This document shows, one piece after another, positions 45,001 to 48,000 of a DNA stretch of 64,000 nt; position 1 is the stretch's first letter; each line of letters opens with the position of its first letter. A program made the position numbers. The stretch is from Candidatus Cloacimonadales bacterium (GTDB lineage: Bacteria; Cloacimonadota; Cloacimonadia; Cloacimonadales; JAFGVF01), in the NCBI GenBank assembly GCA_963663475.2, contig CAXXJV010000001.1:128001-192000 (forward strand), in the 5' to 3' direction.

Positions 45001-48000
45001 CATTTAATCTTGCAGACTATTAAAGGTCTAAATTAGTTTTTTTCTCATTTATTTTTGCAGACTTTCAACTAAGATAGGCCTTTTATATTTTTCTCATTTA
45101 TTTCTACGAATTTATAAGAAATTCAACTTTTTTCTCATTAATTAAAAATACCAATAATCCCAGCAAGCCTACTTATAACACACACAACCCAACTTTTATT
45201 ATTTCTCACTTATTCTTACCCCCCTTATGAAGAGTTAAGAATAATATTCTGCTATTGACACTTGCCCAGCTTTAACTGGGAAGGCGGGCATCCTTGCCCG
45301 CTTCCAGCAAGTAAGTGCTGGAATTCTTCTTACACACCCACTAAAGTGCGTGTTGCGGGCAGGGATGCCCGCATTCCCAGTTAGGCCCGCATTCCCAGTT
45401 AGAATCTTCTTTCCCTTTTGTGTTTTCGTGCCTTTGTGGTGAATCACTTATTATTATCGGTGTTTTCGGTGGCTTATTCTTCCTTATTAAAACTCTGTGA
45501 AACTCCTCTTTACCTCTATGAACTCTGTGTTAAAGAGCTTTTCTTATTCGTGAAATTCGTTCTAATTCGCGTTAATTCGTGTAAAGAATCTCCCCGTCTC
45601 CCCGTCTCTCTATCTCCCCGTCTTTGAGCCGAAAGGCGAAAACCTTTCTCCCCATCTCCCCAAAGGATATTTAGAAAATAATTTGACAATAAGTCAACTA
45701 GTTTAAACTTGTCTCCTAATAGGTAGATTGATTTGTCTTTTTTGCAACTGCCAACCTCCTAATTAGGGGGTGAAACAAAGTGCTAATTAAGTTTGAAAAT
45801 TAGTTATGCAATATCAAACCTAATCCTACCTGTAAAACAAACAAAGGAGACGCAAATGTTAAGAACTGCGGAATTTGTAAGTCCAGGACATCCGGACAAA
45901 TTATGTGACAGAATTGCTGATAGCATTCTGGATGTTTGTTTATCACAGGATGAAAATACTCGTGCTGCCATCGAAGTTATGGGTGGCCACAAATTAATAA
46001 GTGTTACAGGAGAAATTACTACTACAGCATTTGTTAATGTTCAAGAAACTGTTAGGAAAATTACGGGTGAAAACTGTGGAGTACAAGTAAATATTGTTCG
46101 CCAATCACCTGAAATAGCTAATGGTGTTAATAGTGGTGGAGCTGGCGATCAGGGCATTATGATTGGTTATGCCTGTAATGAAAATGAAGAAATGATCCCT
46201 CAGGAAGCCTACCTAGCTCGTTCACTCAACAGATATTTATACAAGAATCATCCTTATGATGGTAAGACTCAGGTAACCCTTAAGGACAATGAAATTGTAG
46301 CCTTAGTAGCTAGTTTCCAGTTATCAAAGACTTCTGACTTACAGTCTGAAATCAAAGACTGGGCTAAAGAGATGAACTTAGATATCTCAAATGCTAAGAT
46401 TCATGTAAATCCAGCTGGTGAATGGAATGTTGGTGGTTTTGATGCTGATACTGGTGTAACAGGTAGAAAACTTGCTGTTGATAATTACGGACCTCGTATC
46501 CCTATTGGTGGAGGAGCTTTCTCAGGTAAGGACTCTACTAAAGTTGACCGTTCTGCTGCCTATATGGCCCGTAGAATTGCTGTGGATTATCTTAGAAAAG
46601 AAAATGCCAAAGAAGTTTTTGTTGAACTAGCATATGCCATTGGTGTTGCTGAACCTGTTCAAGCTACTGCTATTATTGATGGTGTTGAAAAACAAGTTGA
46701 AGGCTATGATTTGACCCCTAAAGGAATTATTAAAGCTTTAGGTTTAACTAAACCTATCTTCGGCGTTACTGCTGAGTGGGGACACTTCGGTAATGGTTAC
46801 AACTGGGATAAATAATATTTAACCTGGAAAACTTTATATTTACTCTCCCCGCCTTACGGCACCCCTCTCATACCGCTCTTACGAGCTGAAAGGGGAATAT
46901 AGGCAGATTCAACTCTGCCTTTTTTTATTTCTCTCCGTCTCTCCGTCTCCCTGTCTCTCCGTCATTGAGCCGAAAGGCGAAAACCTTCTTATTCGTGTTA
47001 ATTTGTGTAAAGAATCTTCCTTCTTAAAACTCTGTGTAACTCTGTGGCAACCTCTGTGAACTCTGTGTTAAGGATAATTCTCCTTCGTGAAATCCCTGGA
47101 TAGACTTCTATGTCATACTGTTTTGTTTCTTGTAGGCAGTTTTAAAACTGCCTACTGCGAGCAAGGATGCTCGCGTTCCCAGTTAGTTGTAAAGAATCTT
47201 TCTTCTTAAAACTCTGTGGACTCTGTGGCTACCTTTGTGAACTCTGTGTTAAGGTTCTTAAAAAATCCGTGAAATTCGTGAAATCCGTGTGTAGATGGAA
47301 GTTTAAACTGGTACACAAATGGCAGTTTAATCTGGTACAGTTTTCAGGAGTAAAAAAGTAAAAATTCCTGGAGACAATATGAAAGGAGCCAAAGTGTATC
47401 ATGCAATCAAGTCGTTAAGCAAAGCAGGTAATAGTGTAAGAGATATAGCCAAGCAGTTAAAAGTATCTAAAACAACTGTTTTACGCTATTTAAATGTACC
47501 TGATAATGAAGTAGAAGAGCTTTTAACAAAAGTTAAAAGACCGAGTGTTTTAGAAGTTCACAGAGAAGCAATAACTCAGAAAATATCATCAAATCCAAAG
47601 ATGAGACTAAGCAAATTATACAAAATATTTAAGAGAGATTATGAAGATTTACAGATAAGTCAAAGAGGTTTTTTTAATTTTTCTAAAAGAATTAAAGAGA
47701 GCTTAGAACTACCAACAAAAAGATATTACAAAGTCGTAAGTTATAAGCCAGGGATTCAGATGCAAGTAGATCCTGGAGAATGTTATATTAAACTATCAAA
47801 TAAAGAGCGGAAAAAGATATATTTTTGCGTGTTTAAATATTGCTATTCAAGAATGACTTTTGTGCATTTCCAGTTTAAGCCATATAATACAGATGATTTT
47901 ATTAGTGCTCATAAAGAATGTTTTGAATATTACGGATATATACCAGAGACAATGATTTATGATCAAACAAAACTAGTAGTAATCAAAGAAATATATAGAG

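Follow-up and report, generated by a model that had tools for sequence, protein, structure and literature searches.

The locus examined here raises the question of how the only S-adenosylmethionine (SAM) synthetase (MetK) of a Cloacimonadales bacterium came to be a compact protein, and from where. The gene, metK, lies at 45856..46815 on the plus strand of the window (the whole stretch of 64,000 nucleotides that was analysed) and encodes 319 amino acids from ATG to TAA. A Shine-Dalgarno sequence, AAGGAG, stands at 45844-45849, 5' of the ATG at 45856. The reading that we favour, with a probability of roughly 0.65, is that this sole housekeeping MetK was gained through a Mu-like temperate phage and that the full-length gene was then lost.

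The compact enzyme

The genome that contains the window (3.30 Mb, 2 contigs, 99.24% complete) holds one real MetK match, found both by protein search and with the PF02773 profile. A profile search for the archaeal-type MAT (PF01941) gave no match in this genome and none in the 12 genomes of the host family. The first-pass annotation had reported a single MetK of 319 aa, about 65 aa shorter than usual and related to phrog_1569, and all of this was reproduced: the Escherichia coli enzyme has 384 aa, so the difference is exactly 65, and phrog_1569 was matched at E 5.8e-94. A longer frame starting at TTG 45793 was rejected, as this codon falls in the conserved leader and all eight members of the lineage give 319 aa from the ATG.

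All three Pfam domains (N, M and C: PF00438, PF02772 and PF02773) are above their cut-offs in the protein, and its score against the TIGR01034 equivalog (262.8 bits) does not reach the cut-off of 309.4 bits. We checked 28 positions of E. coli MetK; in the alignment, 24 are identical, including E8, H14, D16, E42, E55, Q98, D118, D163, K165, D238, R244, K245, K265, K269 and D271. The changed positions are D101E, T227A, R229E and F230W, and W at position 230 is common to compact MetK and the full-length type B enzymes described below. All eight substrate and metal motifs are kept (GHPDK, E42, GEIT, GDQG, DxK, TGRK, SGKD and KVDRS), as the substrate motifs of MetK are listed in the relevant passage of 10.1101/2021.01.05.425418. 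The 65 lost positions correspond to the N-terminus and seven stretches of the E. coli numbering, the edges of these gaps being uncertain: 74-86, 109-113 (the gating loop), 155-162, 174-178, 206-212, 322-330 and 370-383.

An AlphaFold model based on a 43-row alignment reached a pLDDT of 94.5, its least certain part being the shortened gating loop (5 residues fewer; pLDDT 76-80), and gave TM values of 0.88-0.94 to solved MATs (0.92 to 7LOO). The homodimer modelled through the large interface scored 0.91, against 0.00 for the best control, with at least 95% of contacts agreeing between runs and a pLDDT of at least 91; the mark applied to such scores is reached by 20 of 30 solved pairs and by 1 of 23 single chains. 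Because MAT dimers have already been solved, this model shows likeness only. Compact MetK thus has the three-domain fold, dimer interface and eight motifs of bacterial MetK/MAT (E. coli; PDB 1FUG, 7LOO, 7LL3; TIGR01034), but at 40% identity to the E. coli protein and with the shorter chain. The shortest full bacterial-type MetK chain among the PDB matches listed has 377 aa, against 319 here; such a smallest bacterial-type SAM synthetase would lend itself readily to assay and structural work.

In the relevant section of PMC9202080, bacterial MATs are described as variable at the small interface, and some of them as dimers. For the SAM lyase of phage T3, the corresponding part of PMC8406200 names six MAT specificity residues, including I178 and I211, and these two of the six fall in stretches deleted from compact MetK. 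Since that inhibitor is specific to enteric MAT, escape from it is an analogy only.

Under the favoured reading, compact MetK would be a working, pared-down methionine adenosyltransferase that makes all cellular SAM from ATP and methionine, with two active sites per homodimer. The ~320-aa MetK clade to which it belongs, uncharacterised and numbering 5565 proteins at E<=1e-100 among 7999 scored, would then suffice for a 3-Mb bacterium. Against its seven relatives, dN/dS of the gene is 0.055-0.125, and its codon use falls at the 52nd-67th percentile of host genes (1780 ORFs); the phage genes lie at percentile 1-3 on the same scale. By these sequence measures, compact metK looks like an old, selected resident of the host genome.

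Distribution in the phylum and loss of the full-length gene

Compact metK was matched at E<=1e-80 in 16 of the 232 genomes of the phylum. It gives the single match in each of the seven genomes of the window's own genus (g1) and in the one genome of a sister genus (g3), and it is absent from the four genomes of the third genus of the family (g2), which bears out the earlier statement that the genus and one sister genus have only the short form. The same statement had confined the clade otherwise to viral contigs and Saccharibacteria. Those carriers stand and the confinement does not, as the gene is also chromosomal in 4 of 5 genomes of family f8 and in both genomes of family f9, of the same order. 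Bins G093 and G098 have it on small phage-like contigs, each bin containing a full-length gene as well. Of the 14 genomes with a chromosomal copy, 13 are without a second MetK; in G037, a full-length metK (L207) lies on a contig where its foreign-looking neighbours match the window's genome at only 30-45%, and this is probably a foreign contig within the bin. Within the lineage formed by g1 and g3, where metK is single-copy in 8/8 genomes, four genomes are one contig.

Full-length MetK was found in 21/21 sampled genomes of the other orders of the class; about 50 full-length genes were extracted, the remainder being classed by E-value and frame length. The full-length host enzymes are of two types. 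Type A, called ancestral here, follows ptsI or pgi/pmi in 11 of 22 loci; in the window's genome, ptsI is followed by other genes, with no metK there. Type B, carried by the third genus and by families f3 and f4, is 35-36% identical to compact MetK and replaced type A elsewhere in the order. In a species tree of 10 markers and 31 genomes, g1+g3 group with the type B carriers (100) and f8+f9 stand apart (100); a single host clade of compact carriers is rejected (p 0.0006), and three changes of MetK type are needed. This clean tree leaves the order among g2, g1+g3 and f3+f4 without resolution; an earlier species tree, whose markers held some antisense frames, grouped the host family at 96.

Because the two carrier lineages do not form one clade, the sequence data support the view that the compact form displaced the full-length enzyme twice, once in g1+g3 and once in f8+f9. 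The enzyme displaced in g1+g3 was probably itself a replacement, of type B. The ancestral orthologue is gone and a foreign homologue stands in its role, as in xenologous displacement; the first-pass claim to this effect is sustained by the 21/21 genomes of the other orders and by the rejection of both host types in the tests that follow. metK would be unsafe as a marker gene in this phylum.

Phylogeny and the candidate donor

Approximately unbiased (AU) tests on 33 rows under LG+G4 rejected the grouping of compact metK with type B (p 8.6e-7) and with type A (p 3e-44). Compact MetK is 68% identical to the phage gene (67-68% for the best viral relatives) as opposed to 35-42% to the host types, and in the alignment its deletions are the same as those of the phage and Saccharibacteria rows. 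The sister of the host compact clade is a clade with the viral loci L032-L034, at 88/90 in the 33-row tree and 95/87 in a 45-row tree that adds the nearest database proteins. The sister relationship to viral rows noted earlier is therefore retained, now at 95/87; the nesting noted with it is not, since the host clade is sister to, rather than within, this phage-containing clade, in which 6 of the 9 rows come without genomic context. The viral rows as a whole do not form one clade (p 0.006), and a large FastTree calls for at least five switches between virus and cell.

The three viral loci share the order portal, protease-capsid, methylase, metK, methylase, tape measure. That the closest outside relatives are viral, with metK between two DNA-methylase-like genes, had been noted in the first pass; the flanking genes proved to be two D12 adenine methylases. 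The phage metK is leaderless and overlaps with the methylase gene that lies upstream of it. A Mu-type transposase is encoded in two of the three records (L033 and L034). The head protein of this phage was matched in 36 of the 232 genomes of the phylum (E<=1e-10), mostly at 55-83%, including positions inside closed chromosomes of the host family, and bin G098 contains, alongside a full-length gene, metK-bearing phage fragments that share 87-93% identity with the metK phages. Near metK, a methylase match occurs in 19 of 80 viral loci as against 1 of 74 genome loci, that one being itself a phage contig. The nearest relatives of the host gene are thus found in phages that infect the host group, as in a domesticated phage gene, and to judge from these sequences its closest relative is a moron of a phage family that lives in these hosts.

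Two further observations concern these phages. The window's genome contains, at about 1,906,000-1,938,000 of contig C1, a rearranged Mu-like prophage of the metK-phage family, at 58-85% for many genes and with no metK. In G093 (L016/L204), a second, separate phage clade encodes a 315-aa MetK adjoining terminase and portal; this contig was binned with a type B genome.

We propose that the source was a pool of ~315-330-aa MetKs common to phages and some Patescibacteria. The gene would have entered the g1+g3 ancestor, probably carried as a moron by a temperate Mu-like phage of Cloacimonadales, in which a SAM-using DNA adenine methylase flanks it on either side. It would then have stayed on the chromosome and come under a SAM-II-type riboswitch, the full-length gene being lost, and a similar, separate swap may have taken place in f8+f9. 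MetK has no fixed partner, so a neutral swap would suffice; there may also have been a benefit. The common view of phage metabolic genes is that they are host copies for infection, and the reverse flow may hold here for an essential enzyme. The likely donor phage family is still resident in the host group, and three MetK swaps would have occurred in one bacterial order.

The alternative that fares best, although we consider it less likely, is a cellular donor, either the f8/f9 lineage or an epibiont of the Patescibacteria, with the Mu-like phages acquiring the gene afterwards from the stem of the host lineage. At the base of the compact clade stand Patescibacteria rows, both in the 33-row tree and in a 60-row tree (a quick tree, not a mixture model). 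In that phylum, metK was matched in 97 of 251 genomes, about 27 of the 251 with forms of 310-365 aa, and the short MetK is single-copy in 5/5 genomes checked. The host and phage clades being sisters also accords with a cell donor, as does a single origin with f8/f9, which the AU test did not reject (p 0.088). A further point in its favour is that metK is missing from 8/8 prophage regions of the phage family (at least one methylase is present in 6, and two side by side in 3); metK is a rare insert within its own phage family, and the phage must therefore also have taken the gene from somewhere. Against a cell donor, grouping with the four Saccharibacteria-titled rows is rejected (p 0.0015), other Patescibacteria rows lying outside that group. 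The next-nearest clade in the 60-row quick tree is largely viral (15 rows: 10 viral, 1 of the Patescibacteria phylum and 4 host; SH-aLRT 93), a clade that is not resolved in the 33- and 45-row trees. Moreover, the residue before HPDK is K or M in most compact rows, including the phages, whereas it is G in g1+g3; as the phage keeps the common K, its gene was not copied recently from the host. On balance, the phage as carrier is partly supported, and better than in the first-pass proposal of a phage-borne origin: the sister clade at 95/87 holds Mu-like phages of a family resident in the order and in this genome, and the direction from phage to host is a probable one only, given that the host clade stands beside, not within, the phage-containing clade.

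Phage metK genes and xenologous displacement are already known. In the pertinent part of Kieft et al. (10.1101/2021.01.05.425418), viral metK genes form clades apart from bacterial ones. As far as the relevant text of PMC8223999 goes, a shorter prophage metK lies beside the host copy in Streptococcus agalactiae and was deleted in that study. Such auxiliary genes (phrog_1569; PMC8223999) likewise encode a short MetK beside DNA methylases, but they are extra to the host metK, whereas here the gene is the cell's only MetK, chromosomal and with a leader and terminator; the MetKs of named phages are 42-46% identical to the compact form. MATX of euglenids and other algae is presented in the relevant part of PMC3101172 as a divergent MAT spread by gene transfer. 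It is thus likewise a transferred MAT, but eukaryotic, of unclear origin and not short. A literature search, mostly of open-access text, found no paper that deals with metK in Cloacimonadota or with a cell relying solely on a compact MetK. MATX reportedly replaced the canonical MAT in its carriers. What is added here is a candidate donor phage family, the repeat displacement and a riboswitch variant.

Genomic context and the adjacent prophage

Between a tetR-family gene (11574..12176, minus strand) and the metK leader, the window contains an interval (12190..45669, ends approximate) that is absent from relatives and includes a Mu-like prophage and cargo. In two relatives, the tetR gene lies next to metK on the upstream side and joins the metK leader directly; in the window, ~33 kb lie between them. 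The adjacent prophage was considered as the source of metK and rejected: the relatives lack it, and a second copy in the genome lies far from metK and has no metK itself. The prophage beside metK is a later insertion, and its nearness a late accident, which agrees with the earlier remark that metK lies near a Mu-like prophage end here and in host context in relatives.

Downstream, an intrinsic terminator (46901..46930, plus strand) follows metK, and the same stem is found 3' of metK in 5 of 6 relatives shown. An IS21-family element encoding IstA and IstB (47290..49655, plus strand), with 6 other near-identical copies and 8 at ~77% in the genome, is inserted between metK and an M23 peptidase gene (49895..51451, minus strand), which is the downstream host neighbour in 6/6 lineage loci that reach it.

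It is very improbable, on this evidence, that metK is prophage cargo or a side enzyme, with the true metK missing from the assembly or SAM imported. Such a reading could draw on the prophage adjoining metK in the window and on the score under the TIGR01034 cut-off. It is at odds with the single copy in 8/8 genomes, four of them one contig, with the host neighbours kept in relatives that have no prophage, with the gene's own leader and terminator and with the purifying selection on it.

Several dispersed intergenic repeat families (6-37 copies) are stacked on both sides of metK, at 44996-45646 and 46930-47295. Flanking direct repeats were considered as the ends of a cassette and rejected, as they occur in 6-37 genome copies and do not flank metK in relatives. 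At the prophage end, a low-GC (0.27) pair at 43032-44995 encodes a DUF2971 protein and a 168-aa protein without family match that is GIY-YIG-like by eye; the pair is possible defence cargo. Within the prophage, a DUF6996/6997/7226 protein beside a D12 adenine methylase (30239-32426) looks like a restriction-modification pair, and a methylase at 19411-20184 shares 66% identity, across 257 codons, with the second methylase of the phage; its listed ORF has 191 aa and may be broken. Outside this locus, in this genus and its sister the RpoB frames (L296-L299) have ~1418 aa, against ~1270 in the rest of the order, with the profile match beginning at position 88-93.

A SAM-II-type leader

A candidate SAM-II-type aptamer precedes the gene at 45722..45791 (plus strand; Rfam RF01726, 26.5 bits, match span 45717-45796). 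P1 pairs 45722-45726 with 45748-45752, GAUUU stands at 45730-45734, UUGCA (45742-45746) pairs with UGCUAA (45781-45786), and an extra hairpin occupies 45754-45771. Compared with SAM-II (RF01726 with the long loop, RF00521), P1, U10-U11-U12, U20-U21-G22 and the G-C-U44-A45-A46 core all have counterparts here; the SAM-contacting nucleotides are those described for the metX structure 2QWY in the relevant part of PMC3303485. The leader differs from SAM-II in scoring 14-18 bits under the Rfam cut-off, in a covarying hairpin within the long loop, in a U in place of A47 and in a long complementary strand downstream, which takes the place of an overlapping Shine-Dalgarno sequence or terminator. All 8/8 lineage leaders score 25.2-30.2 bits, short of the gathering score of 44 bits, and the match is in the same place in 7/7 relatives. 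P1, the P2b/pseudoknot helix and the counterparts of U10, U11, U21, U44 and A45 are invariant in 8/8 leaders, and pairs that do not vary give no covariation support; covariation is confined to the inserted hairpin (3 pairs).

The structural pattern has two matches in the window's genome and 0-1 in shuffled sequences. It lies upstream of compact metK in 8/8 cases in g1+g3 and was found at 0/6 loci of f8/f9, 0/76 viral loci and 0/103 other genome loci. Of the full-length genes, 3 of 36 of type A and 7 of 11 of type B have it upstream; inspection by eye brings type B to 11/11, there together with a terminator. The exact leader pattern was found elsewhere in no viral sequence and in three metagenome contigs, all with this lineage's metK at 80-93%. 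Because the phage gene has no leader and the pattern is absent from all 76 viral loci, the candidate riboswitch was supplied on the host side. Descent of the leader from a type B gene gained no support: with a covariance model built on 13 leaders of type B and f14, no compact-gene leader was recovered. The least probable origin of the enzyme, in-place shrinkage of the resident host MetK with convergence on the phage forms, would accommodate the canonical GHPDK and a SAM-II-type leader like that of type B genes, and can be set aside given the AU rejection of both host types under LG+G4, the 35-42% identity to them against 68% to the phage gene, and the deletions shared with phage and Saccharibacteria rows.

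A putative expression platform (45798..45849, plus strand) comprises an anti-aptamer strand (45798-45832) and the Shine-Dalgarno sequence. The strand can pair with the whole aptamer; 96.9% of alignment cells are paired, with no covariation. In the folding model, the Shine-Dalgarno sequence goes from 0.93 unpaired to 0.33-0.34 in 3 of 7 leaders, an effect that is weaker in two and absent or reversed in two. The whole-leader fold is not unusually stable (z -1.11), and no sigma-70 promoter was found above chance. Small shares of four RNA runs were searched, and two contigs from one study span a relative's leader and gene start at 94-96%; as library DNA is a possible source, they were not taken as expression. 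Taken together, the leader is probably a real SAM riboswitch, with SAM binding predicted from the conserved core; whether it acts on translation, the Shine-Dalgarno sequence being hidden on SAM binding as the folding model would have it, is an even bet.

We offer only tentatively an account of why the gene was retained. A phage auxiliary gene that feeds phage DNA methylases would have been domesticated twice in one order as the sole, essential SAM synthetase of the host and, in this lineage, placed under an undescribed SAM-II variant gating translation. The enzyme would be a minimal, dimer-only MAT without the surface loops for tetramer contacts and for docking of phage inhibitors (T3 SAM lyase, for example), and the loss of these loops could explain its retention.

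Related leaders were seen at other loci. In the type B leaders L205, L206, L208 and L214-L221, a SAM-II-type aptamer that scores below the Rfam cut-off is followed by a terminator, and in L236, L237 and L240, of family f14, such aptamers, again below the cut-off, overlap the Shine-Dalgarno sequence; the aptamers of type B and f14 leaders often lie just behind a tRNA gene. The compact metK leaders L124-L126, L129 and L130 of Saccharibacteria are SAM-I-like by eye. In the sister genus, a cobalamin riboswitch (L008, 2695-2870; 101.6 bits) lies back to back with the metK leader.
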